From positions 28,964 to 92,963 of the forward strand of contig DATERJ010000012.1 of the NCBI GenBank assembly GCA_035271645.1: 64,000 nt of DNA. The letters run 5' to 3'. Source of the DNA: Candidatus Dojkabacteria bacterium. Lineage in GTDB: Bacteria; Patescibacteriota; Dojkabacteria; SC72. The notes beneath the pieces are model-generated. The model was not told where the DNA came from. It made no database searches and saw only the letters and a program-made list of their open reading frames with translations. The first letter of the stretch is position 1; the number at the start of each line of letters is the position of its first letter. The position numbers and the translations under genes were made by a program. Below are positions 4,063 through 62,637 of this stretch, piece by piece.

Positions 4063-4497
4063 TTACTCTACCTCGACTACCCCGTTTTCTAAAATAGTGA
4101 CAGTCATGTCATCTTGAACGTAGTTTAAGAACTCGTCTCCCAAAGAATCGATTGTTGGCATACTGTTATCTGTCCATACATCTGCTAAGATAGCTCCTGC
4201 TGCTGCTAGTGAGTCAATGGGTTTGGAAAACAGTAATGCACCAGGACTACAGTTCGTTACCGCTGCATTGTACAAGACCATACCTCCTGTTGTTGAACCA
4301 ATGGTTTGTGGTAAGCATAGGGCAACTCCTACAGTTGATTTGCCATACAGATCTTTGTTGTTTTGATCTGTACAGATATTCTTTCCCTCCTTACAATCTT
4401 TATACGATGCCAATGTATTAAAACCAGTATGTGATACTAAGGCTTTTAGCTTACAAGTACCTGGTACTACAACTCTTCCTTTAAATGTTTTTTTCAT
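4063..4497 (-). CDS. aconitase X (AcnX) small subunit-like swivel-domain protein (DUF126 family)
   Basis: 144 aa. Gly-rich core (TIGSTTGGMVLYNAAVTNCSPGALLFSKPIDSLAAAGAILADV) resembles DUF126. Immediately follows the DUF521-like large-subunit gene. Confidence 0.6.
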   Translation of the reverse strand: MKKTFKGRVVVPGTCKLKALVSHTGFNTLASYKDCKEGKNICTDQNNKDLYGKSTVGVALCLPQTIGSTTGGMVLYNAAVTNCSPGALLFSKPIDSLAAAGAILADVWTDNSMPTIDSLGDEFLNYVQDDMTVTILENGVVEVE

Positions 4498-4509
4498 TTT
4501 TCTTATCTT

Positions 4510-5769
4510 TTATATAATTTGTTCTAAAATCTCATCATCAGAATAATATTTAGATGAAGTATAGGTTCTTAATTTGTTTGAATTTGTAATAACTGGCATT
4601 TTTGCACATAGTGGATTATTCATATACATTAAAGGACATATATAGCTTGTAACTACACCCATCTCTTTTAACTTCTTAGCATTCTCTGTATTCTCAAATT
4701 CTTTCAAAACAGCTGGAGCAGAAGTAAAGACAGTTTTAATTCTAATCTTTTTCTTTCCTTTTGCTTTTAGAGCTTCTTCTAACTTCTCTGTCCAGTCATT
4801 AAGTTGTTTTAGACTCATATGTGGACAGCCCATGAAGCATAGTTTTGGTTTAGCATCAGGATTTTTCCAAATGCATGGATAGCTTTTCTTTACCCTTTCT
4901 AATTCAGCATCATCTACTATGTAGACTTTAGCGTTTTCATTAATCAAGTTTTCTTTTAATTCAACTGCTTCTGGGGTTAGATTTTCAACATGGTATAGTC
5001 CAACTGAGCCATTAGATGCCGTAGCTGCACCGAAGTCTTTTAAGTATGATAATGTGTCTTCATCTAAAGTGGTTCCTAACCATTTATCTAAACCTTTAAT
5101 ATATGGAACATCTTCTAAAACTTTCATCCCTATCGCAGAACCTAGTAGTTGTGCTTCTGGTTTCTTTGTTGTCTTTACTTCAACAATCCAGTTAGCTTTT
5201 CTTCCTTCATCAGTAAGAAGACCAAAGTAAGGGACATAGCCAACGATTGATCCAAACATTTCAATAATGCCAGAGTTACGATTGCATCTTGCTCCCAATA
5301 CAGAGTTTGCATAGTTTACAGCACTTGATTCTGCCCAAGAGAGAATGTCTCCTTTTTCGGGTATGTTACCTACTTCTGGAAGATATGCTGCACAGGTAAA
5401 AGCATCGTCTGAGAGAAGTCCTATCTTTTTAAGTTGATCTTCATATCGCTTTTGTGGTCCATACATGATTTTGAAAACAAGGTCTTGGAGGATATTCTTA
5501 GGTACATTTGGATCTAGTGGTCTAGGGTCTGCTGAGAATTTTTGTTTTGACTCAACTTCTGCATCAAGAAGTACATCCATTAAGTCAAAGACTCCTTTTA
5601 CAACTATGACTCCAAAACTAGTTACAATATGTCCGTATTTGCTAGTAACAGGAACCATTTTAGTAGCACCAAAGGTTTCTCCGTACATGACTAATGTCTT
5701 CATTATCTTAGCCATTACTTCACCTTGCTGACCATCTAAAATTGCTTGTTGTTCTTTTGTTAATTCCAT
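4510..5769 (-). CDS. aconitase X (AcnX) large/catalytic subunit-like protein (DUF521 family hydro-lyase)
   Basis: 419 aa. N-terminus MELTKEQQAILDGQQGEVMAKIMKTLVMYGE matches the DUF521 start pattern. Several conserved Cys/Ser positions. Paired with the small-subunit gene. Confidence 0.65.
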   Translation of the reverse strand: MELTKEQQAILDGQQGEVMAKIMKTLVMYGETFGATKMVPVTSKYGHIVTSFGVIVVKGVFDLMDVLLDAEVESKQKFSADPRPLDPNVPKNILQDLVFKIMYGPQKRYEDQLKKIGLLSDDAFTCAAYLPEVGNIPEKGDILSWAESSAVNYANSVLGARCNRNSGIIEMFGSIVGYVPYFGLLTDEGRKANWIVEVKTTKKPEAQLLGSAIGMKVLEDVPYIKGLDKWLGTTLDEDTLSYLKDFGAATASNGSVGLYHVENLTPEAVELKENLINENAKVYIVDDAELERVKKSYPCIWKNPDAKPKLCFMGCPHMSLKQLNDWTEKLEEALKAKGKKKIRIKTVFTSAPAVLKEFENTENAKKLKEMGVVTSYICPLMYMNNPLCAKMPVITNSNKLRTYTSSKYYSDDEILEQII

Positions 5770-5781
5770 ATATTTGTTTTA

Positions 5782-7842
5782 CTAAATTTTCATTCCAACA
5801 TCCCACGCTCTCCATGTGACTGTTCTTAAGTTACCAACCTCATTGCAATCACCTACGAGATGGACTTTTCGATTTGTTTCAGGGATTGTTTTTGGATTGT
5901 AGCCTACTGACATAATGACAGTATCTGCTTCTATGAATATTTCTTCTCCATCTTTGTTCATTATCTTAACTCCATCCTTTGTAATCTCTTGAACAGCAGA
6001 TTCTAAGTGAACCTCAACATTATTTAGTGCAAAGAACTCTCTGAGATATGAACTGTTTGCTAAACAAACTCCTCTTACAGCTATTAAATCATTCCTTGCT
6101 TCAACGATAATAGGTATTTTTCCTTTTTGGTATAGGTCTAATGCAATCTCACAACCGGTTAAACCTCCACCAATGATTATAACTTTTTCACCAGCTTTGG
6201 AGTTGTCTTTCAAATAGTCACATGCTTCAATTGTATTCTCAATTCCTTTTATCTTTAATCTCTTTGGTGTTGCCCCTATTGCAACAATTACTTCATCTGC
6301 ATCTATTTCATCAATATTAGTCACTTCCGTATTAAACTTAATTTCAATTTGTAAATCTTGCATCTCTTTTTCGTACCAATCAAGCAAGGCTCTCTCTTTA
6401 TCTTTAAAACCAGGTGTTGAAGCATATTTAAATACTCCTCCTACCCTATCACTTTTTTCATAAATTGTTGCCTTGTGTCCTCGTAGTGTTAAGAGTCTTG
6501 CAACTTCCATTCCCCCTATTCCTGCACCAATAACTGCAATGTGTTTAGGATTATTTGTTTTTACAATCTTGTATTTCTTAGATTGCATAGTAGTTGGGTT
6601 TAGTGCACATCTAGCCATACCTGCATTATCTGAAAGTGCTTGGTCATTCCCTACTCCTTTGTAGTGAGCCATATTAAAACATGCATTATGACAACCAATA
6701 CATGGCTTTATACTTTCCTCATCACCATTCATGAGTTTAGTAATCCACTCTGGATCAGTGAGGAATTGTCTAGCAACTCCCATTGCATCAATTCTGCCCT
6801 CTTTTATCGATCCTGCTCCTGCTGATGGTGTCATTCTACCTGCACAAACTACTGGAATATCTACATACTTCCTAATCTCTTCAACATCTTTAAGGTTACA
6901 GTTGTAAGGCATATACCCTGGAGGATGAGCCCAGTACCAAGCATCATATGTTCCATTGTCACAATTTAACATGTCATATCCTGCATCTTGTAGATATTTT
7001 GCAGCACGTTTTGATTCCTCCATATCTCTTCCTACTTCAGTATATTCTTCACCTGGGAGTGCTCCTTGTCCGAATCCTTTTGTCTTAGAAACGACCGAAT
7101 ATCTGAGTGATACTGGAAAATCTTTTCCACACTCTTTTTTAATTGCTTGCACTATTTCAATAGGAAATCTATATCTATTCTCAAATGAACCTCCATACTT
7201 ATCATCTCTAAAGTTTGTATATTTCATTGTAAATTGATCAAGAAGATAGCCTTCATGAACAGCATGAATTTCAATACCGTCTACTCCTGCCTCTTGGCAA
7301 AGTTTAGCTGTTTTAGCAAAACCTTCAATTATCTCCTGTATTTCTTCAACTGTCATAGGTCTAGACATTACAGAATCATCCCAACGATTTGGTGTTGCAC
7401 TTGCACTAGCTGTTAGGTAGTCAACATCTAGAACTGGTTTGAGAAGTGTTCCTAAGAATTTGTTGTGATGAGCTTCAATCATTAGGTGGTTAATTGCTAG
7501 ACTTCTTCCAAAACCTGCTGTTAATTGGATGAATAGTTTAGAACCTGTTTTGTGGAATTCATCCATGAACTCTTTAAGTTCTCGGAATTTGCCTTTACCT
7601 TGGTAGAGCCATTTTCCCCAAAGGATATCACGAATTGGAGCAATACCAGGGAGTATTAGTCCTACATTATTCCTTGCTCTTTCTAAAATGAAATTGGCTG
7701 CCTCTTTGTCAAAATGATTACCCAATGGTTCCATCCATCCAAAGAGTGATGTACCACCCATAGATGTCATAACAATCCTGTTTTTGATTTCAAGATTACC
7801 AATCTTCCATGGGGTGAATAGTGGTTTGTACTCTTGTTTCAT
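5782..7842 (-). CDS. Old Yellow Enzyme-family NAD(P)H:flavin oxidoreductase with 4Fe-4S motif and C-terminal FAD/NAD(P)-binding domain (2-enoate reductase / 2,4-dienoyl-CoA reductase-like)
   Basis: 686 aa. N-terminal OYE TIM-barrel features (IKNRIVMTSMG, HAVHEGYLLDQF). Cys cluster CIGCHNACFNMAHY...C. Rossmann motif HIAVIGAGIGGMEVA and a second IIIGGGLTGCE. Confidence 0.8.
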   Translation of the reverse strand: MKQEYKPLFTPWKIGNLEIKNRIVMTSMGGTSLFGWMEPLGNHFDKEAANFILERARNNVGLILPGIAPIRDILWGKWLYQGKGKFRELKEFMDEFHKTGSKLFIQLTAGFGRSLAINHLMIEAHHNKFLGTLLKPVLDVDYLTASASATPNRWDDSVMSRPMTVEEIQEIIEGFAKTAKLCQEAGVDGIEIHAVHEGYLLDQFTMKYTNFRDDKYGGSFENRYRFPIEIVQAIKKECGKDFPVSLRYSVVSKTKGFGQGALPGEEYTEVGRDMEESKRAAKYLQDAGYDMLNCDNGTYDAWYWAHPPGYMPYNCNLKDVEEIRKYVDIPVVCAGRMTPSAGAGSIKEGRIDAMGVARQFLTDPEWITKLMNGDEESIKPCIGCHNACFNMAHYKGVGNDQALSDNAGMARCALNPTTMQSKKYKIVKTNNPKHIAVIGAGIGGMEVARLLTLRGHKATIYEKSDRVGGVFKYASTPGFKDKERALLDWYEKEMQDLQIEIKFNTEVTNIDEIDADEVIVAIGATPKRLKIKGIENTIEACDYLKDNSKAGEKVIIIGGGLTGCEIALDLYQKGKIPIIVEARNDLIAVRGVCLANSSYLREFFALNNVEVHLESAVQEITKDGVKIMNKDGEEIFIEADTVIMSVGYNPKTIPETNRKVHLVGDCNEVGNLRTVTWRAWDVGMKI

Positions 7843-7938
7843 AAACCTTTCTCCTTTAATTTAGATATGAATTAAAAGATACGATTTGATACTAAATAGT
7901 ACAGAGTTAAGTTGTGGATTGCAAGGAGCTGGCTTTAA

Positions 7939-8118
7939 GGTCTGACCTAGGTCTGTCCCCCAATTTCCACCCCCTTCTGCCTGTCTATCAAGGTTTGTTG
8001 GTTTGGATACTTCTGATGACAGCTTACAAAGTTCATCCGAAATACGACGCTTTGGACTAGGAAACCGTTGTACAAGGAGAGAACCTTTGAACATGGAAGG
8101 TCTGACCTACCCCAGACC
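7939..8118. repeat. hairpin-bounded intergenic repeat element, copy A (about 180 nt; inverted relative to copy C)
   Basis: Termini GGTCTGACCTAGGTCTGTCCCCC ... GGTCTGACCTACCCCAGACC. The reverse complement of the core is about 90% identical over roughly 100 nt to the copy at 61003-61182 (shared ...CGGTTTCCTAGTCCAAAGCG.CGTATTTCGGATGAACTTTGTAAGC...TCCAAACCAACAAACCTTGATAG). Confidence 0.55.
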
Positions 8119-8132
8119 TTGGTAAGCTTCTG

Positions 8133-8141
8133 TGGTAGAAT
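8133..8141 (+). promoter_or_regulatory. extended -10 promoter element TGgTAGAAT immediately upstream of dus (predicted leaderless or near-leaderless)
   Basis: TG-n-TAGAAT at 8133-8141. The predicted TSS coincides with the dus ATG at 8148. No SD. Confidence 0.35.
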
Positions 8142-8147
8142 ATCTCT

Positions 8148-9092
8148 ATGAACATATACAGACAGATACTTAAGAAGAAAGGTCACATTCTGGCCCTTGC
8201 CCCTATGGAAGGTGTTACTGACACTGTTTTTAGGCAGGTTTTATGCAAAATTGGTAAACCAGATCTGTTTTTTACAGAATTTCTTAATGTTGAAGGTTTC
8301 TGTTCTAAAGGAAGGGAGAAAGTTATACATAGGTTGGATTTTAGGAATATTGAGAAACCTGTGGTTGTACAACTTTGGGGGAATGTTCCTGAGTATTATG
8401 CTGAAACTGTTGAATATGTAAAGACTCTTAATCCAGATGGTATAGATATTAACATGGGTTGTTCTGTTAGAGATGTGCTTTCTAGTGGAAGAGGTTCTGC
8501 TTTGATAAATGACAAGGTATTAGCTAAGGAGATAATTGATGTTGTTAAGGAGAGTGCAGGTGATTTACCTGTTAGTGTGAAGACTAGGATTGGTTTTGAC
8601 AAGATTGATACAGAGGAATGGATTGGCTTTTTGCTTGAGCAAGGTTTGGATATGATTACGGTTCATGGAAGACTTTCGAGAGAGGGTTACTCTACTCCAT
8701 CTAGGTGGGATGAGATAGCCAAGTGTGTAAAGTTAAGAAATGAAATTGCTCCTGATACTATTGTTTTAGGAAATGGTGATGTGAAGGATATTGAACAGGC
8801 TAAGGAATATGTAGATAGATATGGTGTTGATGGCGTTATGATTGGTAGAGCTATACTGACTAATCCATGGTTGTTTAGTGGTAGGAAGCCAGAGGATATA
8901 TCTAAGGAAGAGAGAGTTGAGGTTCTAAAAAAACATTTAGAGATTTTTGAGAAAGAAAGAGGAGAGATGAATATATTTAACAGTCAGAAGAAGTATATTA
9001 AGGCATACATTAGTAATTTTGATACAGCAGGAGAATTGAGATCTAAGCTTATGGATACAAGTAGTTCTCTGGAGATTATGGATATACTTTGA
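8148..9092 (+). CDS. dus: tRNA-dihydrouridine synthase
   Basis: 314 aa. LAPMEGVTDTVFR, TIM-barrel Dus motifs, DINMGC (catalytic Cys), VHGR. Confidence 0.85.
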   Translation: MNIYRQILKKKGHILALAPMEGVTDTVFRQVLCKIGKPDLFFTEFLNVEGFCSKGREKVIHRLDFRNIEKPVVVQLWGNVPEYYAETVEYVKTLNPDGIDINMGCSVRDVLSSGRGSALINDKVLAKEIIDVVKESAGDLPVSVKTRIGFDKIDTEEWIGFLLEQGLDMITVHGRLSREGYSTPSRWDEIAKCVKLRNEIAPDTIVLGNGDVKDIEQAKEYVDRYGVDGVMIGRAILTNPWLFSGRKPEDISKEERVEVLKKHLEIFEKERGEMNIFNSQKKYIKAYISNFDTAGELRSKLMDTSSSLEIMDIL

Positions 9093-19487: not shown

Positions 19488-22031
19488 ATGGAGAGTGAGA
19501 GTAAGAAAACAACACCAGTATACTTTTTTGATGACTATTCAGCCAAAGAATTAAATGAAAACAAGGTTGGACGAAAAGGTCTAAGTCTTTTCAAACTTAA
19601 GGATATGGATGTACCTGTTCCAGAGTTTTTTGTGATTTCTACTGATACTTTCGTAGATTTCATGGTAAAGGCTTTTAAGGATGGGAAGGATAGGATTTTA
19701 GCGAAGGGAAGAAATCCAGAGAACAAAGAGGTTGAGGATATGCTTCTAAAAACAGAGTTCCCAAAGGAAGTATTAGATGAAATACTCTCGGCATATACAA
19801 GACTCTCTGGCTTTACTGATGCGTGGGTTTCTGTAAGGTCGTCTGTTTGTTTTACAGCAGATAAGGATGTTTCTTTTAGTGGTATATTTTCTACAGAATT
19901 GAATGTTAGAAAATATGATGAATTAGTCCAGTCGATTAAGAGAATATATGCATCGATGTTTAGCGATGATGTTGTAGCATATGCAGGTAGGATGAATATT
20001 GATTTGGCAGATGCAAAGATTGCTGTGGTAGTACAGAAGATGGTTCAGTCAGAAGTTGCAGGTGTGGTATATACTACCGACCCTGTCACTCAGGATAAAA
20101 CAAAGCTTAGTATTGAAGCAGTATATGGTCTGGGAGATGTAATCTCTCTTGGTGAGATAACTCCAGATACATATGTGCTTAACAAAAAAGACCTTTCTAC
20201 TGCAGAGATGTATATATCTCCACAAGAATGGATGAAAGTAAGGACTATGAGGAGAACAGGAAAAGGTACAGTAGGTGTTGAGAAGATAAAGATTTCAAAA
20301 AATTGGAGTCACAAACAGAAACTTCCTGATAGGGATATTCAAGAGATTGCGAAGATATCATTGGTGATAGAAGACAGGGGGAATGAAGCACAGAATATTG
20401 AATGGGTATTATCTGGTGGTCGATTCTGGGTGTTACAGAATAAACCAATTAGATATATCTCACTATCCGATGGGATACTAAAAGAAGGTGTGTATATTGT
20501 AAGGAAGAATGTTAGAGAGGTAATCTTAGGATTCATAGAGAAATACAAGAGTAAGGATGAGATGGTTACCTCTGCAATGACAGAAGCAAAGAAGATTGTT
20601 GAAAAGAACAATGATGAGGAGATAAAGAGACTTGAGAAATTGATAGTAGAGGCAAAGAAAGAGCTTGATAGTAAAGTTGCAGTTCCTGAGGTTAAACAAG
20701 ATGACTTCGTTATCTCAGGTATAGGTGCAAGTTTTGGAAAGGCAACTGGAAAGGTAAGGATTGTGTCTGGAGCTACAGATAAGAAATATACTAAAGATGA
20801 TATTCTTTTGATTAAGAAATATTCTTCAGAGATGGAATCTATGATTCTTTCTTCTGGAGGTATCATTATGGAAACAGGCGGTCTTACAAGTGATACAGCA
20901 ATTCTTTGTAGAGAGTTTAATATCCCAGCAGTAGTAGGTGCTACTGGAGCATCTACTCTGTTGAAAGAAGGTGACAGGGTTAGAATTGATGGTAATGCAG
21001 GGACAATATACAAGAGTGAGAAGTTAGCAACTGAGGAAACAGAGGTACATCCAGTTGTTGATGCATATACAAAGGGAGACCTTACTGGAATGGAGAGTAT
21101 TGAACCTGCTAAGGTAGAAGAAGTTAAAGAAGAGCTTCCACCTAAAGACTTCACCCTACCCCCTTCAGCTACAAGGGTCTTTTCAATGGTTACAGACAGT
21201 AGCAAAAAGATGTTTGAGTTTGTTGGTGATTCTCATGGATTGGTATATATTGATTTAGATAAAATAATGCTTGAAGATGGAAGACATCCACTTCAGTATG
21301 TGGAAGACAAAAAGTTTGTTGATTACACAAAGAAAATTTGTGAGAAAGTTTTGGAATATATTAAACTTGTACAAGGTGATGAAGTAGTTCTAACAATTGG
21401 TTCTAGTAAAGTGAGAGAGTTTAGGTCATTAGTTGGTGGTAAGAAGCAGGAGAATGCATCGGTTTCAGCAGAAGCATTTGGTGCCCAGCACTACATCAAC
21501 AATCCAGAGCTCCTTATCAGAGTTGCAAGGATAGTAAGGAGAATTAGGAATGTACACAAGAAGAGGAATGTTTCCTTAGGGATTCATGCAGTTATGAACG
21601 GTGACTTTATGGTCGAAATCAAAAAACAACTCTCTGGTGAGAACTTAAAGAGAACATCATCATTTAAACTCTATGCAGTACTTGATAACCCATCCGAAAT
21701 TATACTAGCCGATGAAATTGCTAATGCTAGAATAGATGGCATTATCCTCAATATGCCTAGGATTGCTATGCAGATGCAAGGATTTAAGATTGAAGATACT
21801 GATGCACATTACGATTTAGCAAGGCATAGTGTTTTCAAAGTTGTGGATAATCTTCTTGCTGAAGTGAAAGGAAAGCTAAGTCAGGTAATTGTTGTTGCTG
21901 AGGATAGTAAACCACTTCTTAGATATTGTGTAAGAGCTGGAGTGTATGGTGTTGCTGTTCTTCCTGAGGATATCAAAGATGCACGAAAAGCAGCTGCTGA
22001 TGAGGAAGGAAAGATAATCTTAGGAAAATAG
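19488..22031 (+). CDS. phosphoenolpyruvate synthase / pyruvate phosphate dikinase-family protein with non-canonical phospho-carrier motif (His->Asp)
   Basis: 847 aa. N-terminal PPDK_N-like ATP-grasp (VGRKGLSL). Central PEP-utilizer swivel motif GGLTSDTAILCREFNIPAVVG (canonical GG.T.HAAI.AREL.IPAVVG). The residue corresponding to the phospho-His is Asp (codon 20892-20894). Diverged C-terminal domain (IILNMPRI in place of GTNDL). Confidence 0.75.
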   Translation: MESESKKTTPVYFFDDYSAKELNENKVGRKGLSLFKLKDMDVPVPEFFVISTDTFVDFMVKAFKDGKDRILAKGRNPENKEVEDMLLKTEFPKEVLDEILSAYTRLSGFTDAWVSVRSSVCFTADKDVSFSGIFSTELNVRKYDELVQSIKRIYASMFSDDVVAYAGRMNIDLADAKIAVVVQKMVQSEVAGVVYTTDPVTQDKTKLSIEAVYGLGDVISLGEITPDTYVLNKKDLSTAEMYISPQEWMKVRTMRRTGKGTVGVEKIKISKNWSHKQKLPDRDIQEIAKISLVIEDRGNEAQNIEWVLSGGRFWVLQNKPIRYISLSDGILKEGVYIVRKNVREVILGFIEKYKSKDEMVTSAMTEAKKIVEKNNDEEIKRLEKLIVEAKKELDSKVAVPEVKQDDFVISGIGASFGKATGKVRIVSGATDKKYTKDDILLIKKYSSEMESMILSSGGIIMETGGLTSDTAILCREFNIPAVVGATGASTLLKEGDRVRIDGNAGTIYKSEKLATEETEVHPVVDAYTKGDLTGMESIEPAKVEEVKEELPPKDFTLPPSATRVFSMVTDSSKKMFEFVGDSHGLVYIDLDKIMLEDGRHPLQYVEDKKFVDYTKKICEKVLEYIKLVQGDEVVLTIGSSKVREFRSLVGGKKQENASVSAEAFGAQHYINNPELLIRVARIVRRIRNVHKKRNVSLGIHAVMNGDFMVEIKKQLSGENLKRTSSFKLYAVLDNPSEIILADEIANARIDGIILNMPRIAMQMQGFKIEDTDAHYDLARHSVFKVVDNLLAEVKGKLSQVIVVAEDSKPLLRYCVRAGVYGVAVLPEDIKDARKAAADEEGKIILGK

Positions 22032-22071
22032 TGGCTAGTTAATACATCTTCTTCTGTGATATACTTTCCAC

Positions 22072-24675
22072 ATGGATAGTACTCCGATGATGAGACAATA
22101 TTGGGGTTTTAAGAGACAATACCCTGATAAAATACTGCTTTACAGAATGGGTGATTTCTTTGAGACCTTTGGTGATGATGCAAAGATTACATCTAAAGTT
22201 TTAAATATTACTCTTACTAAAAGAAACAAAGAGAAAGATGCAATTGCTCTTGCGGGTTTTCCACATAAAGCGTTGGATCAATACCTTCCGAAACTGATAG
22301 AGTCAGGATACTCTGTTGTAATTGTAGACCAACTTGAGGATCCAAAGTTGGCTAAAGGAATTGTAAAAAGAGGAGTAACTCGAATTGTTACACCCGGTAC
22401 TGTTGATGGAGAACAAGCAAGTGCAATTAAAGATTCATATCTAGCTGCATTCTTTTTTGAAGGGAAAAATAGATATTGTTCCTTGGTTGATCTGTCTACT
22501 GGGAAGTTTTTAACACTCTCCCCTAGCCCATCTAAGGGATATGTAAACAATATTCTTTCTGCGTATGAACCTGTTGAAATTCTTCTTCTTGAAGGTGAAC
22601 AGAGTGAGGAGTTAGGAAATTCTCTTGTACATTTTGTAGAGAAAGGTTTGAGGAATTTGAAATATTCACAAGAGGTTGTTCAGGATTTTTACAATGTAAA
22701 AAGTATTAATTCTTTAGGAATAGAAGATGATTCTGCTGAAGTAGTTCCAGTAGCTATGTTAATTAAATATATTGAGGAAACACAGTTAATGAACCCTCAG
22801 CATATTCTGAAGCCTCAGAAGATTTCATTAAACAGTACCATGGTTTTAGATAGGGCTACAATTCGAAACTTAGAGATAATTAACAATTCATATACGGGTG
22901 GTATAGAGAATTCGCTTTTCTCTGTCTTGAACAAAACATGTACAAGAATGGGTACTAGATTACTCTACTCTTGGCTTCTTAATCCATTGATTGTTAAAAA
23001 GGAAATAGACCATAGATTAAATGTTACAGATAAATTTTTTCAAAATGAGAGTGTTTTAAGAGATGTAAGAGAGAAATTAGAAGGAATTAATGACATTGAG
23101 AGGGTTGTAGGTAAGATTGGGCTTAACAGAGTAACACCTAGGGATATAAAGGGACTGCAAGGATCGTTAATAAATTCTGATGAAATCCTTGAGATTCTCA
23201 AGAAAGATTTGAATATTAAATATGAAAAGTTAGATAGAAAATTCTTCACCAAGTTAGCAGAGAAGATAGAGGAAACGATTGCTGATGACCCTCCGATAAC
23301 AATTATGGAAGGAGGGATAATTAAAACAGGATTTAACAAAGAGGTAGATGAGTTAAGAACACTCTCTGGAGATAGTAAAGATTGGTTGAAAGAATTAGAA
23401 GAGAAAGAAAGAAAGGAAACAGGTATTCCTTCATTGAAAATAGGATTTAATAATGTGTTTGGATATTACATAGATGTTACAAAAGCACATCAGGAGAAAG
23501 TACCAGATAGGTATATTCGTAAACAGACATTAGTTAATTCAGAGAGATATATAACAGAAGAACTAAAGGAGAAAGAAGAGATAATCTTAAATGCTCGTGA
23601 TAATCTTAGTGCACTTGAGTATCAATTGTTTAATGAATTTAGAGAATCGCTCCTACCTAATCTTGGAAAACTTCAAGAGTTATCTAAGGTAATAGCCGAG
23701 ATAGATGTTCTTTCCAACTTTGCACATGTTGCAATTGAAAACTCATATTGCAAACCAGATATCTTTGAGATTGGTGAGAATGATGGATTGATTGAAATAG
23801 AGAAAGGTAGGCATCCGATAATTGAATCAATAGCTGATGAGGAATTCATATCAAATGATACTAAGATGTCTTTTAAAGAAGGTTGTATGTCTATTCTCAC
23901 AGGTCCTAATATGGCTGGTAAGTCAACATATATTCGTCAGGTTGCTACAATTGTTCTCATGGCACAGATTGGGTCTTTTGTTTCAGCAGAGAGTGCAAGT
24001 ATATCCTTGGTTGATCGAATATTTACAAGGGTTGGAGCATCAGATGATTTAGCAAGAGGAAGAAGTACTTTCATGGTAGAGATGGATGAGGCTGCTAATA
24101 TTGTAAACAATGCGACTAAGTATAGTTTGATAGTTCTTGATGAGGTTGGAAGAGGAACAAGTACATATGATGGTGTCAGTATTGCTTGGTCTTTAGCAGA
24201 ATATATTCTTAAAGAAGTTAAAGCTAGGACAATGTTTGCAACTCACTATCATGAACTTCTCAAACTTTCTGAAAAATATCCAGATAGTGTAAGGAATTAC
24301 AATGTTCTTGTTGAAGAAGATTTGGAGAAAGGAGTTGTAATTTTCCTAAGAAAGATTGTACAGGGTGGTACAGATAGAAGCTATGGAATCTATGTTGCTA
24401 AGATGGCAGGACTTCCCGAGAAGGTTGTAAAGAGAGCAAATGAGATACTAGAGAGCTTTGAGCAGAAGAATATGTTTACTGGAAAGTCTAGTGTAAGGGA
24501 GATTTCTTTTACAGCAAAGAGCAAGCAGGAGAAAGCTCGTTTAACTGCAATGCAGTATCCTCTCTTCTCTGCAAAGGATTCTGAAATTGAGAAAGAAATT
24601 CAAGGTATCGATACTGATAATCTTACTCCTCTTGAGGCACTTAAAAAGATTGTTGAGTGGAAAAAGAAAGTCTAG
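22072..24675 (+). CDS. mutS: DNA mismatch repair protein MutS
   Basis: 867 aa. N-terminal MMRQYWGFKRQYPD...GDFFE mismatch-binding domain. Walker A GPNMAGKSTYIRQVA. DEVGRGTSTYDG. C-terminal HTH region. Confidence 0.9.
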   Translation: MDSTPMMRQYWGFKRQYPDKILLYRMGDFFETFGDDAKITSKVLNITLTKRNKEKDAIALAGFPHKALDQYLPKLIESGYSVVIVDQLEDPKLAKGIVKRGVTRIVTPGTVDGEQASAIKDSYLAAFFFEGKNRYCSLVDLSTGKFLTLSPSPSKGYVNNILSAYEPVEILLLEGEQSEELGNSLVHFVEKGLRNLKYSQEVVQDFYNVKSINSLGIEDDSAEVVPVAMLIKYIEETQLMNPQHILKPQKISLNSTMVLDRATIRNLEIINNSYTGGIENSLFSVLNKTCTRMGTRLLYSWLLNPLIVKKEIDHRLNVTDKFFQNESVLRDVREKLEGINDIERVVGKIGLNRVTPRDIKGLQGSLINSDEILEILKKDLNIKYEKLDRKFFTKLAEKIEETIADDPPITIMEGGIIKTGFNKEVDELRTLSGDSKDWLKELEEKERKETGIPSLKIGFNNVFGYYIDVTKAHQEKVPDRYIRKQTLVNSERYITEELKEKEEIILNARDNLSALEYQLFNEFRESLLPNLGKLQELSKVIAEIDVLSNFAHVAIENSYCKPDIFEIGENDGLIEIEKGRHPIIESIADEEFISNDTKMSFKEGCMSILTGPNMAGKSTYIRQVATIVLMAQIGSFVSAESASISLVDRIFTRVGASDDLARGRSTFMVEMDEAANIVNNATKYSLIVLDEVGRGTSTYDGVSIAWSLAEYILKEVKARTMFATHYHELLKLSEKYPDSVRNYNVLVEEDLEKGVVIFLRKIVQGGTDRSYGIYVAKMAGLPEKVVKRANEILESFEQKNMFTGKSSVREISFTAKSKQEKARLTAMQYPLFSAKDSEIEKEIQGIDTDNLTPLEALKKIVEWKKKV

Positions 24676-36941: not shown

Positions 36942-37044
36942 GTGTATATTATATCTTTTTTATACAAAAAGAAAAAAGCCCTAAGACTTATGAGATATAT
37001 ATTAATATTTTTATCTCTGCTTAGAGCTGTTTGTTCTTTATACA

Positions 37045-37389
37045 TTACTTGTTTGTTCTGTCTTTCTTTACAATTTCCTCATCCATTTCAAGAGGGACTA
37101 AGTTAAAGTATCCTATTAGATCGTTTTTTTGAACAAGATAATTCTTTAGAGTTAGTAAATATACCTCTTCCACAGTGCCTGAAGGATATACTGGATGATC
37201 GATAAGTATGGGGAGTGTTACTTGGTTGAAAATTAAGTTGACACCGATTCCTGTCATCATACTGAACTTAAAAGCATCGCTAACAGCCTCTTCCAATGTT
37301 GAGCCTTCCTGTGCACTAATTGGTATTCGCCATGGTATTCTTAGATGTGGGAATTCCTTCTTCCTTATTGTAGACAACATCTTTATCAC
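37045..37389 (-). CDS. hypothetical protein (114 aa)
   Basis: ORF only. Confidence 0.4.
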   Translation of the reverse strand: MIKMLSTIRKKEFPHLRIPWRIPISAQEGSTLEEAVSDAFKFSMMTGIGVNLIFNQVTLPILIDHPVYPSGTVEEVYLLTLKNYLVQKNDLIGYFNLVPLEMDEEIVKKDRTNK

Positions 37390-37470
37390 CTTTTCCTTTC
37401 TTTTTGAATGTTTTTTAATTGTACAAAGAACCCTTAATTATACCACAGAACGATTGGGAACACTATGGGG

Positions 37471-51218: not shown

Positions 51219-52424
51219 CTACTTCTTAATATACTTTCTATATTTTAATTTATCTGGCATACATTGTTGATCTGACTTCTTACTTGGTAAATCATGGTCA
51301 TATTCATAGTCTTTACCATATCCAATATCTTTCATTAGTTTTGTAGGAGCATTTCGTATATTCATAGGTACTGGAAGATTGCCATACTTCTCAATATCTA
51401 CTTTTACCTCACCCTCTACTCTGTATGCTGTATTGTCCTTAGGTGCATTAGAGAGATATATTGCTAATTGCATAAGGAATACTTCACATTCTGGCATACC
51501 AATCTTCTGACAAGCTTCATATACAGCATTTGCTAATATGACAGCTTGTGGGTCTGCATTACCGATATCTTCACTTGCAAACCTTAACATTCTTCTTGCA
51601 ATGTATAGTGGGTCTTCTCCTCCTGCTAACATTCTTCCAGTCCAGTAACAAGCAGCATCAGGATTAGATGACCTCATTGATTTGTGTATAGCGGAGATAA
51701 TGTTGTAGTGTTCTTCTCCTGTTTTGTCATAGTATACTGGCTTTTGTACTGTTGTTGTTAATATATCCATAGTTATTTCTTTCTTCTCTTCATCTTTTGC
51801 ATTTGCTAGTGTAGAACTCATTTCCAATATATTTAATGCAGACCTAATATCTCCATTTGAGAGATTAGCCATTTGTTCTAGTACTTTCTTTGATATTTTA
51901 ATCTCTGGATATTCTTCCTTTGATATTCGTTTTAGGAGGTTGTATATATCTTCTTCTGTTTGTTGTTTGAATACAAATACTTTTGTTCTAGAAAGAAGTG
52001 CAGATATTACAGTAAATGATGGGTTCTCTGTTGTTGCACCGATTAGTGTAATGATTCCTTTCTCTACATATGGTAGGAGTGTGTCTTGTTGTGCTTTGTT
52101 CCATCTGTGTATTTCATCTAGGAAGAGGATTGTTTTTTTACCGTATTGTTGATTACCAATTGCTATTTTAATGATTTTTCTTAGATGTTCTTTCCCACTA
52201 TTTACAGCTTGCATTTTGTGAAAGTCATAGTAGAGATTAAGGGAAAGTATGTATGCTAAGGTTGTTTTACCTGTACCGGGTGGTCCCCAGAATATCATAG
52301 ATGGTATTTTACCCGTTTCCAAAAACTTCCTTATGGGGCCGTTCTTTCCTACTAGGTGTTCCTGTCCTACAAACTCTTCAAGTGTTTTAGGTCTGTATTT
52401 TGATGCTAGTGGTTCGTTAGTCAT
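51219..52424 (-). CDS. rarA: replication-associated recombination protein A (MgsA/RarA AAA+ ATPase)
   Basis: 401 aa. GPPGTGKTTLA, LFLDEIHR, C-terminal MgsA-specific helical domain. Confidence 0.85.
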   Translation of the reverse strand: MTNEPLASKYRPKTLEEFVGQEHLVGKNGPIRKFLETGKIPSMIFWGPPGTGKTTLAYILSLNLYYDFHKMQAVNSGKEHLRKIIKIAIGNQQYGKKTILFLDEIHRWNKAQQDTLLPYVEKGIITLIGATTENPSFTVISALLSRTKVFVFKQQTEEDIYNLLKRISKEEYPEIKISKKVLEQMANLSNGDIRSALNILEMSSTLANAKDEEKKEITMDILTTTVQKPVYYDKTGEEHYNIISAIHKSMRSSNPDAACYWTGRMLAGGEDPLYIARRMLRFASEDIGNADPQAVILANAVYEACQKIGMPECEVFLMQLAIYLSNAPKDNTAYRVEGEVKVDIEKYGNLPVPMNIRNAPTKLMKDIGYGKDYEYDHDLPSKKSDQQCMPDKLKYRKYIKK

Positions 52425-52462
52425 ACCTGATTATACTACATAGTGGTGGTATAGGTGTTAAA

Positions 52463-52630
52463 GGTCTGGTCTGGGTCAGACCTTATACATTTTACGAAAA
52501 GCGTTGTCGCACGACCATTTGGAAGGAAAGCCAGTCCAAACCGAGAAATCGTACCCAACAAGTTAATCAGGAGAAAGCGGTTGTTTTCCTGTCATAAAAG
52601 GATATTACTAAGTCAGACCTAGGTCAGACC
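52463..52630. repeat. hairpin-bounded intergenic repeat element, copy B (same termini, divergent core)
   Basis: Termini GGTCTGGTCTGGGTCAGACC ... GTCAGACCTAGGTCAGACC. The 128-nt core shares only a short block (GTCCAAACC...) with copies A and C. Confidence 0.45.
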
Positions 52631-52640
52631 TGTTGAGAGT

Positions 52641-53234
52641 CTAACCATAAATATGCAAATATTCACCATTACTTAGTTTTTCTTTCTTTTTTGCTTTTAA
52701 TCCTTTGATTTCATATCTATAACTAAATACCTCACCCCCACCCTTAATAAATTTCTCAAACTTCTTTTTCAATATACTCATACTCTTTTCATCTAAATAA
52801 CAATATATTTTTGTAAAATCTTTTAGAGATGCTTCATATATATTCTCAACATCAAAAATGATATCTTTGTTTGTAGGATACTTTAATATTCTAAATGCTC
52901 TGGCAATGATAATCATGATTGGAGAGAGGTCTAAACCATAGCATTTACACTTAGCATTACCATATGTTTCCAGTACTACCTTTCCATCTCCACAACCTAA
53001 ATCTACAAAAGTATCATCTTTCTTAAGATTCATGAAATCAATAATTTCATGAATGATATCCCTAGGAGTTTTAAGAATAGGAACTAAAAGAAGATTGATT
53101 AAAACAGTTAAAAGGAATGCTCCAATGAGCATAATCACAATTAAAACAATACCTACAGTTATTCCATTTGCCATTTGTATAGAAGAATAATATATAATTA
53201 GGTATATGATAGACGGAATCTTGTTAATTAACAA
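52641..53234 (-). CDS. class I SAM-dependent methyltransferase with N-terminal TM helix (start more likely the internal Met near 53174)
   Basis: 197 aa. VDLGCGDGK motif I. The first-ATG start overlaps truB by 29 nt on the opposite strand. The internal MANGITVG start does not. Confidence 0.6.
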   Translation of the reverse strand: MLINKIPSIIYLIIYYSSIQMANGITVGIVLIVIMLIGAFLLTVLINLLLVPILKTPRDIIHEIIDFMNLKKDDTFVDLGCGDGKVVLETYGNAKCKCYGLDLSPIMIIIARAFRILKYPTNKDIIFDVENIYEASLKDFTKIYCYLDEKSMSILKKKFEKFIKGGGEVFSYRYEIKGLKAKKKEKLSNGEYLHIYG

Positions 53235-59474: not shown

Positions 59475-60371
59475 TTAATTTTTAATTAATGTTCTTAATT
59501 TGGCAGAAGCGGAGCGAGGATTTGAAATTCTCTCTTCATCGGTTGGGGCAATGTGTTTTGAAAAAAGCAAATTCCCTTCTCCGCTTCTCGATTTTTCTAA
59601 ATTAAAGTTTTTAACGATGCGATCTTCTAATGAATGGAATGTAATTACTGAGAGTCTTCCATTCTTGTTTAAGATCTCAAAAGATTTATCTAATGCCTTC
59701 TCTAAACTACCCAACTCATCGTTTACCACGATTCGCAGGGCCTGAAAGACCCTGCGAGAAGGGTTCTTAGTAAAGGAGTTCTCAGCAGCCGGTACTGCTT
59801 TGTAGATAAGTCTTGTAAGATCTCCAACTGTATTGATATTAGAGATGTTCTTTTTGATTTCTTTGGCAATTCTTTGTGCATATCTTTCTTCTCCATATGT
59901 CCAGAAGATTCTAGCTAGTTCTTTCTCTGAGAGTACATTTAGTAAATCTTTTGCTGTTACTCCTAATCCTTCATCCATTCTCATGTCTAAAGGTTCTTTT
60001 TCTTCTTGGTAGCTAAATCCTCTGTTGTGAGATTCTTCTAGTTGTCTTGAAGAAAGACCAATATCAAGTAGTATTCCATCTGGTTGTCTACCTTTTCCAA
60101 ATTCTTTTACAACTTTATCAATCTTGGAAAAGTTAGACTTAACGATTATCCAGTTATCAAGGATTGATTCTTTGTAGTACTCTTTAACAAAATCAATTGC
60201 ATGTTGGTCTTGGTCTATGCTGATTAAGAGTCCTTTTGGTGAGAGCCTTTTGAGAATCTCAAAACTATGCCCACCATCACCTAGTGTTCCATCAATGTAA
60301 AAGCCATCCTCTTTTATTGCTAAGGAATCAATCGTTTCATTAAGAAGTACTGGAATATGAATCTTATCCAT
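59475..60371 (-). CDS. rsmH: 16S rRNA (cytosine1402-N4)-methyltransferase RsmH (MraW)
   Basis: 298 aa. HIPVLL.E, DGTLGDGGHS, VITFHSLEDRIVK. Confidence 0.9.
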   Translation of the reverse strand: MDKIHIPVLLNETIDSLAIKEDGFYIDGTLGDGGHSFEILKRLSPKGLLISIDQDQHAIDFVKEYYKESILDNWIIVKSNFSKIDKVVKEFGKGRQPDGILLDIGLSSRQLEESHNRGFSYQEEKEPLDMRMDEGLGVTAKDLLNVLSEKELARIFWTYGEERYAQRIAKEIKKNISNINTVGDLTRLIYKAVPAAENSFTKNPSRRVFQALRIVVNDELGSLEKALDKSFEILNKNGRLSVITFHSLEDRIVKNFNLEKSRSGEGNLLFSKHIAPTDEERISNPRSASAKLRTLIKN

Positions 60372-60807
60372 TCTTACCTTCTGACATCTTACTTATCTCT
60401 TGAGCTATTTCATCTCCATGCTTTTGTAGGTACTCTACTCTTTCTGCCCATTTCTTTGCATCCCAAATTTCAATCCAGTTAACGAGTCCTATGAATACAA
60501 TTTCATCTGTTAAACCTGCATGGTCGAAAAGAGCTTGAGGGATTACAAATCTTCCTTGTCCATCCATCTCAATTTCTTTTGCACTTCCTACTAAGAATCT
60601 ACTTGTATCTCTAATATTTTTATCTGTAAAAGAGCCATTCATTACATCTTTTGCAACATTTTCCCACATTTTCTTGTTTACAAGGATTAGGGCTTCTTCA
60701 TATCCTCTGGTGAGAATTAAATCTTCACCAATCTCTTCCCTAAACTTTGTTGGAAGTGATACTCTTTTCTTTTCTCCTACTTTACTTTTGTATTCTCCGA
60801 TTATCAT
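60364..60807 (-). CDS. mraZ: transcriptional regulator MraZ
   Basis: 147 aa. Two MraZ repeats with DGQGR-like motif (MDGQGRFVIP). First gene of the dcw cluster. Confidence 0.85.
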   Translation of the reverse strand: MIIGEYKSKVGEKKRVSLPTKFREEIGEDLILTRGYEEALILVNKKMWENVAKDVMNGSFTDKNIRDTSRFLVGSAKEIEMDGQGRFVIPQALFDHAGLTDEIVFIGLVNWIEIWDAKKWAERVEYLQKHGDEIAQEISKMSEGKNG

Positions 60808-61002
60808 GTTTTGACTATATCATATTTCACCACTTTCTACCACTTCTTGCCACTAATATAGCTTGGGGGGCTTGGGGTGTCAAGAGAAAAACATTACAGG
60901 CTCGAATATAACACTCTGGGCCACATACTTCTCTAAAAGTAAAGCCATTTTCTATATGTGTGCTCTCCCTATTGTCATCTCCTCTGGAACCGATAGGTTT
61001 TA

Positions 61003-61182
61003 GGTCTGACCTAGGTTAGACCTTCGATTTCCTTCGGTTTTCGCATTGTACAATCGTTTCCTAGTCCAAAGCGCCGTATTTCGGATGAACTTTGTAAGCC
61101 GAAATCAGAAGTGTCCAAACCAACAAACCTTGATAGGTAGGTAGATAGGTATGGAAAACAGGGGACAGATCTGGGACAGACC
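61003..61182. repeat. hairpin-bounded intergenic repeat element, copy C (about 180 nt)
   Basis: Termini GGTCTGACCTAGGTTAGACC ... GGGGACAGATCTGGGACAGACCC. The core is near-identical to the reverse complement of copy A. Confidence 0.55.
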
Positions 61183-61197
61183 CTAAAGATGTTGGGC

Positions 61198-61226
61198 TTG
61201 CTAAATAACGGTAGAAGCAATATATT
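61198..61226 (+). promoter_or_regulatory. candidate murF promoter TTGCTA-17nt-TATATT, beginning 16 nt after the copy C terminus
   Basis: Hexamers and 17-nt spacer read directly. About 25-nt leader to the ATG at 61258. Confidence 0.4.
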
Positions 61227-61257
61227 ATGTTAAGGATAAACTTAGAACTGTACTGCT

Positions 61258-62637
61258 ATGAAGATTTTTCTAAAAGATATTAAGGAGAGATTTCCAGAGT
61301 TTGAGTTTCAAAACTACGATGAAAATGCTTTTTTCACAGGATTCTGTTATGACTCCAGAGATGTCACAGAAGGTGACTTGTATATCCCCATTGTTGGTGA
61401 AAGGTTTGATGGTCATGCTTTTGTTGTTTCCGCTTTAGAGAATGGTTGTTCTGTAAGTTTGTGTGAAAGTACTAAAAAATCTTTTTGTGAGGAAGCAAAT
61501 GGTCCAATAATTCTGGTTGATTCCATTGAGGAAGGGTTAATGAAAATCCTCAACTACTCCATTGGGTATATAAAGAAGCCGGTGGTGGCAATTACAGGTA
61601 GTACAGGAAAGAGTACAACGAGGAGGATGATTGTTCATATAGTTGAGAAGCATCTAAAGGTACTTTCCTCAAGTAAGTATAATACTGTGTGGGGGAATGC
61701 AAGGTTGCTTGGTCAATATGCAAATGAAGATGTAATTGTATTGGAATGTGGAATGGATCGAGTTGGAGAGATTGCATGGCATGTTAATTCTGTAGATCCA
61801 GACATAGGTGTTCTTTTGAATGTTTGTGATGTACATGCAGAGAAGGTTGGTGGTATAGAGAATGTGTTTAAGGAGAAGAAAGATTTGGCTGACTATATGG
61901 AGCGAACAGGAAAGCCTCTTGTGTTAAATATTGATGATGAAAGATTGAGACATATTCTGGAGGCATATAACAAGGAGGCACAGTTAATTACATATGGGCA
62001 AAACCCAGAAGCAGATTTTGTCTTAAGTGATATTGTTGTTGACCACGAAGGTACGCATTTTAAGTTTAGATATTATGATGCTAATGTTGTTTCGGTAGAT
62101 TTAAGTGTATATGGAGAGGGTTTTGCATATGATGCCATGGCGGCAATCATTGTAGCTAATGAATTGGGTGTAAGTATTGCTGATTGTGTCAAAAATCTGA
62201 GAGATTATGAAAATCAAGATGGTAGGTTCCAAGTTTTAGAGTATGGAGACCTTGTAATTGTAAATGATGGTTACAATGCTAATCCTGTTTCTATGAAGAT
62301 GGCTTTAGAGACATTTTCTAATCTCTACTTAGAGAACTACTATACTATCGCAATTCTAGGAGATATGAGAGAGCTAGGAGATGTATCAGATGACAGACAC
62401 AAGGAGATTGCTGATTTAGTTAAGGAATATGAGTTTAATGAAGTCTACTTAATTGGTGACCTATGGGGAGATTCGGATGTCGGAGAGAAGATTGCTTCTG
62501 CAGATGAAGTTGCCGCTCTGTTAAATGCTAAATTACAGGGTCTAAAAAACAGGAAGGTTGCAATCCTACTCAAAGGTAGTCATAGACATGGTCTTTATCA
62601 AGTACCAGACTTTCTTAAAAAGCTTGGAGCAGTCTAG
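61258..62637 (+). CDS. murF: UDP-N-acetylmuramoyl-tripeptide--D-alanyl-D-alanine ligase
   Basis: 459 aa. Mur ligase P-loop ITGSTGKSTT. C-terminal Mur_ligase_C. Confidence 0.75.
   Translation: MKIFLKDIKERFPEFEFQNYDENAFFTGFCYDSRDVTEGDLYIPIVGERFDGHAFVVSALENGCSVSLCESTKKSFCEEANGPIILVDSIEEGLMKILNYSIGYIKKPVVAITGSTGKSTTRRMIVHIVEKHLKVLSSSKYNTVWGNARLLGQYANEDVIVLECGMDRVGEIAWHVNSVDPDIGVLLNVCDVHAEKVGGIENVFKEKKDLADYMERTGKPLVLNIDDERLRHILEAYNKEAQLITYGQNPEADFVLSDIVVDHEGTHFKFRYYDANVVSVDLSVYGEGFAYDAMAAIIVANELGVSIADCVKNLRDYENQDGRFQVLEYGDLVIVNDGYNANPVSMKMALETFSNLYLENYYTIAILGDMRELGDVSDDRHKEIADLVKEYEFNEVYLIGDLWGDSDVGEKIASADEVAALLNAKLQGLKNRKVAILLKGSHRHGLYQVPDFLKKLGAV

Follow-up and report, generated by a model that had tools for sequence, protein, structure and literature searches.

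The closest described systems are the REPIN/BIME repeats of Proteobacteria and the RAYT transposases associated with them (Nunvar 2010; Bertels & Rainey 2011, PMC3116915; Ton-Hoang 2012, PMC3333891; Messing 2012, PDB 4ER8). As outlined in PMC3333891, the REPtron and REPIN architecture comprises a Y1 transposase gene lying between inverted REPs together with many non-autonomous inverted REP pairs; the same source describes E. coli strains in which tnpA-REP was lost by replacement, with hicAB in its place.

The window, by which we mean the whole stretch of 64,000 nt that was analysed, comes from a Candidatus Dojkabacteria bacterium (WS6, CPR/Patescibacteria) with a genome of ~0.7 Mb, a lineage recovered from digester and fermentation metagenomes, to which the window was assigned through MurF homologues and a search of species-representative genomes with the end motif. 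It contains three copies of a repeat, designated A, B and C. Since the same palindromes are found inverted around a HUH/Y1 transposase gene in sister genomes, these copies are most probably non-autonomous, REPIN/BIME-like partners of a RAYT-type transposase, copy C having been inserted between pre-existing promoters. A REP/RAYT-type repeat system would thereby be documented in a Candidatus Dojkabacteria (CPR) lineage, whose 0.7-Mb genome with ~5% non-coding DNA would be an extreme setting for the persistence of REPINs. No paper linking RAYT or REPIN with Patescibacteria was found in the literature searched.

The features held in common with the proteobacterial systems are short extragenic palindromes in inverted pairs, a Y1/HUH gene flanked in inverted orientation by the same palindromes, a transposase that is apparently single-copy and syntenic across species, non-coding elements that outnumber the transposase gene, the apparent loss of the transposase by replacement in some lineages (here with a 114-aa ORF in the slot), and the persistence of elements at orthologous sites, as seen at rarA. 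The Dojkabacteria system departs from them in its CPR host with so small a genome and in its modest copy number (three per 64 kb). The palindromes stand ~140 nt apart, and not tens of nucleotides as in classical REPINs and BIMEs, and the interiors between them are conserved within subfamilies (the A/C, B and X/Y types). Unlike classical REPs, each palindrome is a near-perfect 22-mer made of two 9-bp sub-palindromes and lacks the 5' GTAG or guide tetranucleotide: on the 5' side of the palindrome only a single A is consistent, the rest being variable, and CTAG/GTAG, where it occurs, is part of the loop and does not precede the stem. Most of the elements are found upstream of genes, whereas E. 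coli REPs are usually located at gene 3' ends, and the Dojkabacteria protein scores under the cutoff of the NCBIfam REP_Tyr_transpos model. The system thus stands out mainly for its host lineage, for a double-box palindrome that lacks any GTAG-type tag, and for an interior that is both long and conserved.

The classical MITEs with terminal inverted repeats (Correia, RUP, ERIC) are likewise 100–250-nt non-coding intergenic repeats with inverted ends, and they too often lie beside promoters, where effects on expression have sometimes been reported. The Dojkabacteria elements differ from these in showing no target-site duplication, in having a Y1 HUH rather than a DDE transposase as partner, and in that each of their ends is itself a hairpin-forming palindrome.

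Copy C and the mraZ-murF spacer

Pfam matches to MraZ (PF02381) and to Mur ligase confirmed the naming of the two genes that flank copy C: mraZ occupies 60364–60807 on the minus strand, and the Mur ligase gene, identified as murF by the sources, lies divergently at 61258–62637. The spacer between them (60808–61257) measures 450 nt. Copy C, a non-autonomous REPIN-like element of the A/C type, extends over 187 nt on the plus strand (61002–61188) and thus fills 42% of the spacer, and not most of it as had been stated. The first-pass annotation had placed it at 61003–61226; a copy is indeed present there, but this range fuses the element with a separate host promoter. Over its 187 nt copy C shows 82% identity to copy A (7933–8119, opposite strand; blastn E = 5e-49). 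A phage DNA search with the 450-nt spacer as query returned no match.

From left to right, the element comprises the left palindrome, ~140 nt of core, a double box and, at its terminus, TAAAG. The left end, A-GGTCTGACC-TA-GGTTAGACC-T (61002–61023, plus strand), contains one mismatch and resembles a REP hairpin, forming a 9-bp hairpin in the single-stranded DNA fold. The right double box, GGACAGATC-TG-GGACAGACC (61163–61182, plus strand), was located by motif scan and is degenerate, with three mismatches to GGTCWGACC-NN-GGTCWGACC; pairing between it and the left end was absent from the same fold. TAAAG (61184–61188, plus strand) is a near-constant 3' extension of A/C-type copies, following the right end in most of them at different loci.

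Consensus scanning placed a murF promoter-like site, TTGCTA-17-TATATT (9/12), at 61198–61226 on the plus strand, outside the element. As noted in the first-pass annotation, it begins 16 nt past the terminus, the last base of the terminal box being 61182. On the other side an mraZ promoter-like site, TTGACA-17-TATATT (11/12), was found at 60855–60883 on the minus strand, 118 nt from the element. In four sister species lacking copy C (MurF identity of 85, 81, 78 and 71%) the mraZ-murF spacer is 271–276 nt long, and alignment reveals a clean 187-nt gap which starts 3 nt after the conserved host motif CCGATAGGT and stops ~15 nt before the -35 hexamer. At these four empty spacers the murF site is conserved as TTGCAA/TTGCAT/TTGAAA-17-TATATT, as are both hexamers of the mraZ promoter. 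Copy A presents a parallel case: in two genomes without it (L030, L032) ~30 nt stand in place of 204 nt, the dus sequence TGTGGTAGAAT is retained, and TTGCAA-17-TACTAT of the oxidoreductase gene is also kept in genomes without the copy.

Since the murF, mraZ and dus promoter sites are kept at empty sites, the promoters predate the insertions, and the shorter element-free spacers identify copies C and A as discrete insertions. This upholds what had been assumed about the element, with the spacer growing from ~275 to 450 nt at mraZ/murF and from ~30 to 204 nt at the copy A site. The annotation had named two observations that would tell against its proposal, namely promoters unrelated to the element and orthologous spacers equally long without it. 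In the sister genomes the promoters do exist without the element, but the orthologous spacers are shorter. The promoters are host sequences unrelated to the element, which speaks against a regulatory role. The element as promoter donor was ruled out, as neither hexamer is part of it and empty sites retain both. On the preferred reading, the length of the spacer that precedes the cell-division (dcw) cluster would be explained without recourse to regulation.

The host motif CCGATAGGT (60990–60998, plus strand) stops 3 nt short of the insertion point. Its CCGATA is invariant, and CCGATAG occurs in four of the five aligned species, whether the element is present or not; the motif could be a host regulatory sequence or a piece of a target. 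ATAGGT is also found 5' of copy B, and GATAGGT lies inside the empty site of copy A. In the mraZ promoter, the 17 nt between the hexamers (60861–60877) are made up of GCTTGGGG repeated twice in direct orientation, as read on the plus strand. The repeats, which are not conserved in the four aligned sister species, call to mind the TGGGN repeats to which MraZ binds in E. coli.

End palindromes and the transposase cassette

An element end is composed of two 9-bp GGTCWGACC boxes with TA between them, the boxes being 11 bp apart. With the flanking A and T the double box makes a near-perfect 22-bp palindrome (ends measure 20–22 bp), and A-GGTCWGACC-TA-GGTCWGACC-T offers annotators a usable marker of the elements. 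With up to two mismatches allowed, the 12-mer TAGGTCAGACCT was counted 16 times in the window, where 4.3 would be expected; none of 100 shuffles reached 16.

Copy A, also of the A/C type, lies at 7933–8119 on the minus strand. On one side of it a gene for a flavin oxidoreductase starts at 7842 and runs along the minus strand; on the other, dus starts at 8148 on the plus strand. The claim that it sits beside the dus -10 element holds. The hexamer TAGAAT (8136–8141), preceded by TGTGG, is 16 nt beyond the end of the copy (8119/8120), with the dus ATG 6 nt further on. What the scan gave for dus was an extended -10 and not a -35/-10 pair. Both dus and rarA have their -10-like hexamer (TAGAAT and TATAAT, respectively) 5–6 nt before the ATG (8136–8150; 52424–52440), so near as to suggest leaderless mRNAs. 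The same layout, TGnTATAAT-ATG, was seen at several sister-genome genes beside elements.

Copy B (52462–52631, plus strand) has the same ends around a B-type interior. It is flanked by rarA/mgsA, which starts at 52424 on the minus strand, and by the stop codon of a methyltransferase gene at 52641. It is more diverged, sharing with copies A and C its ends and a few words of the core. At least four related genomes (L022:3262–3467; L025:5199–5382; L054:7840–8000; L004:9219–9386) also have an element in the spacer upstream of rarA (52425–52640), with an identical right junction, GGTCAGACC followed by TGTTGA. The interiors are unrelated among these genomes, being B-type, X/Y-type or of another kind, as if either a hotspot had received several insertions or the interior had been exchanged while the site stayed fixed. 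In L004, a 91.5%-identical relative, two extra ORFs of 104 and 60 aa (8556–9049) stand between the methyltransferase gene and copy B, with no Pfam hit on record.

The double boxes are paired in the Dojkabacteria MAGs, mostly 148–221 nt apart. Four pairs are ~530 nt apart, and these long pairs enclose an ORF of 149–151 aa; a 158-aa version with the same boxes was found in sister species. Inverted double boxes flank the transposase ORF in L042, L043, L016, L077 and L141–L145, and in L042 and L043 the ends form a perfect 20-bp inverted pair. The cassette measures ~546–555 bp and holds one Y1 gene between two hairpin ends. Its ORF passes the Pfam Y1_Tnp model with 35–46 bits (threshold 23). NCBIfam REP_Tyr_transpos was the top model for all four proteins tested (36–58 bits, below the 80-bit equivalog cutoff), and the NCBIfam IS200 model gave at most 16 bits. 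When a 36-sequence profile was compared with the PDB, the best match, a full-length one, was to TnpA-REP of E. coli (4ER8; E = 1.5e-6), as against partial matches to IS200/IS605 transposases (E = 0.004 or weaker). The profile was needed, a phmmer search of the PDB with a single transposase sequence having given only a spurious DARPin hit. The transposase alignment contains an invariant H-x-H and an invariant Tyr123, which is predicted to be the catalytic tyrosine, and several homologues carry the JGI label "REP element-mobilizing transposase RayT".

The ~200-nt elements of L042/L043-type genomes have ~45 nt of subterminal sequence in common with the cassette ends; no similarity to the transposase gene was detected in A/C-type or B-type interiors. 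In L141–L145 the cassette occupies a slot between rsmD and SpoU methylase/recG, which is shared by at least three species with proteins 64–69% identical to the query, and in L042 and L043 it occupies a different one. Among the recovered loci there is one cassette per MAG, and the short elements outnumber the cassettes. A tblastn search with the transposase found no Y1 gene in the 64-kb window. By synteny, its rsmD-SpoU methylase slot (36942–37470) contains an unrelated ORF without boxes (37045–37389, minus strand; 114 aa, no Pfam or NCBIfam match), by which the transposase appears to have been replaced. The second cassette site (22030–22081) is empty when aligned with L042 and L043, which carry the cassette there. 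With both known slots empty or replaced in the 64 kb of genome seen, and with degenerate ends, the window copies may be relics, and the lineage may show a repeat population after the loss of its transposase.

It is unlikely, in our estimation, that the copies descend instead from a selfish IS200/IS605 element as its deletion derivatives (PATEs or MITEs), the ~555-nt cassettes being minimal autonomous units that transpose whole. The resemblance lies in the Y1 HUH transposase, the subterminal hairpins and the lack of a visible target duplication, and in short non-autonomous derivatives which, like PATEs, keep the ends only; the cassette is compact, and Pfam assigns its protein to the general Y1_Tnp family only. 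At least two cassette slots exist in related species, one of them empty in the window, so that the cassette must have moved or have been gained and lost. A T-rich or TTAC-like sequence may also stand 5' of the left end, the left flanks often being, loosely, TTACA, TTGTA or TTTTA; IS608 inserts 3' of a TTAC-like target, of which these flanks are reminiscent. Against such a descent, the protein matches TnpA-REP better than it does the IS200 transposases, and its two flanking ends do not differ from each other but are inverted copies of one palindrome, as in a REPtron. Among the recovered loci no genome had several cassettes, and the short elements are the more numerous. The presence of the cassette in one rsmD-SpoU slot in at least three species would point to vertical inheritance, and the cassette appears to be single-copy. 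Unlike those of IS200/IS605 PATEs, moreover, the A/C-type and B-type interiors are without similarity to the transposase gene.

Movement of the elements

If the copies are REPIN/BIME-like partners of a RAYT-type transposase, the palindromes at their ends, which can form hairpins in single-stranded DNA, would be recognised in trans by the RAYT-type HUH/Y1 tyrosine transposase. By analogy with TnpA-REP and IS200/IS605, movement would proceed via cleavage and rejoining of single-stranded DNA without duplication of the target. Copy C landed in free DNA between the divergent mraZ and murF promoters, neither supplying nor removing a promoter. Tolerated insertions would survive only in the few bases between genes and promoters. 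With a degenerate right end, and with the transposase slots of the window empty or replaced, copy C is now probably an immobile relic. No target-site duplication was visible at any junction looked at, which would fit the single-strand "peel and paste" mode of HUH enzymes.

Relatives of copy C are found at unrelated loci of other genomes with identities of 84–95% overall: 94% in L009 and L139, and 84–87% in L017, L103, L109, L122 and L134. All family elements examined are intergenic. Nested or 1.5-copy arrangements exist, and many assemblies break at an element; the 22-bp palindrome thus flags assembly breakpoints as well as gene-content boundaries. At L006:1–145 and L139:9430–9774 partial left-arm copies are stacked, nested or in tandem, beside a copy C homologue. 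Some of the stacked left-arm fragments at contig ends may be assembly artefacts.

Copy A bounds a three-gene block (4063–7842) specifying the swivel and catalytic subunits of aconitase-X (AcnX) and a 686-aa OYE-type flavin oxidoreductase. The block is missing in the 94.6%-identical L098 (5100–5560), which has, next after copy A, the 3' half of a further copy. In L030 (6999–7203) and L032 the oxidoreductase is kept, and an element stands in place of the AcnX genes. Judged from these assemblies, the elements mark the edges of gene-content differences.

A genome scan with a 17-mer also matched high-GC Proteobacteria and Actinomycetota; the likeness goes no further than the palindrome, and these matches were treated as unrelated. 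In identical and perfect form, the 20-bp palindrome GGTCTGACCTAGGTCAGACC occurs in high-GC Burkholderiales (Massilia) and other Pseudomonadota, often just after stop codons (L012, L014, L015, L018, L028, L034, L036, L037, L050, L051, L068, L069, L071, L080 and L082). Some of the sequences flanking it recur across several of these genomes. No similarity extends beyond the palindrome itself, which in Pseudomonadota is probably an unrelated REP or operator.

Placement beside promoters and the case for regulation

The window has a GC content of 35% and is 94.5% coding, and almost any tolerated insertion will consequently end up near a promoter. Once the elements are removed, divergent spacers account for 27% of its non-coding bases, tandem spacers for 64% and convergent ones for 8.5%, and 91% fall in spacers with at least one promoter. 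Without copy C, 127 nt would separate the two -35 hexamers at its site, and the probability that an end falls within 16 nt of one of them is ~0.25; at the sites of copies A and B the free space is ~30–35 nt, so that proximity to a promoter is forced.

The first-pass annotation had proposed either a preference for insertion into promoter-proximal DNA or a regulatory role. As to the former, two of the three window copies are in divergent spacers, which is not significant (P = 0.18), but across the family a mild excess was found: eight of 14 independent two-sided sites are divergent, where 27% would be expected, and none is convergent (P = 0.018, the genes having been called crudely). Three independent sites have the same order beyond the right end, namely TAAAG, 7–9 nt and TTGCAA/TTGCTA, the hexamer beginning 12–15 nt past the right end. 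The mild divergent excess and this spacing are a weak hint that leaves room for a real target preference, which cannot be separated from purifying selection against insertions elsewhere in a compact genome.

Among 11 aligned A/C-type copies compensatory changes were confined to the left terminal palindrome (pairs 1:22, 6:17, 8:15 and 9:14), the double changes keeping it perfect (for example GGTCTGACCTAGGTCAGACC versus GGTCAGATCTAGATCTGACC). Core covariation was absent from these copies, the covariation term of the consensus being -0.76 kcal/mol, and a structured core RNA was rejected for now, covariation being limited to the terminal palindrome. The single-stranded DNA folds of the window copies were no better than those of shuffled sequences (z = -0.85 to -1.8); the ~200-nt X/Y-type elements of the L042/L043 kind fold as long single-strand panhandles (z = -5.0). 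Rfam searches of the whole window at gathering thresholds, and of the copy A and C spacers at E up to 5, returned only tRNA-Val and chance-level snoRNA/lncRNA matches. With no Rfam family, and with varying orientation and neighbour genes, the element does not qualify as a structured RNA or riboswitch. The scan revealed no promoter-like or terminator-like site inside copy C, and the lone call of a terminator in copy B corresponds to the hairpin at the end of that copy. A coding function was rejected as well, the ORFs that cross copies A and C being on opposite element strands and not conserved. Core columns 61–140 are conserved at 88–93% per 20-column bin, versus 77–85% in the left arm. This higher conservation of the core is not accounted for by a passive spacer and counts against the REPIN reading.

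Two readings give the promoter adjacency a function. In the first, which we regard as improbable, the elements insert a few bases 5' of the -35 hexamer and their double-box ends, or the unusually conserved ~90-nt core, are a shared protein-binding or RNA module co-opted for the modulation of promoters; if true, an ultra-small CPR genome would use a domesticated transposase-repeat system to tune its promoters, among them those of genes for the cell wall and division. In the second, to which we attach less credence still, the element is regulatory as such, as an operator pair beside the -35 hexamer or as the source of a small or leader RNA from the core, with an adjacency that is functional or targeted. 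Each of the three window copies does have an end 0–16 nt from a -35 position, the similar spacing from the right end to TTGCAA/TTGCTA recurs at three independent sites, divergent sites are in excess with no convergent ones, the core is better conserved than the arms, and boxes 11 bp apart would share one face of the helix. Set against this, the promoters are intact and conserved without the element, four sister species have no element at the orthologous promoters of these essential genes, relatives differ in how the element is oriented with respect to mraZ, and no promoter or terminator motif, Rfam match, core covariation or conserved ORF was detected; compactness alone predicts the proximity to promoters. 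The proposed regulatory role is thus not borne out, and the promoter adjacency is probably incidental and no evidence of regulation.

In L004, whose flanks are 91.5% identical, the element upstream of mraZ is inverted and lies ~80 nt nearer to the promoter. An invertible DNA switch, in which the palindromic ends serve as recombinase sites and a flip alters the expression of mraZ or murF, would account for the reversal, but it is highly improbable and was rejected: the reversed orientation is seen only in L004 and at a shifted position, with ~80 nt of flank missing, on a contig that begins inside the element (independent insertion or an assembly effect being as likely); there is neither a promoter inside the element nor an invertase or recombinase nearby; the same ends flank a transposase gene elsewhere; and strains with 98–100% identical flanks spanning the element share one orientation.
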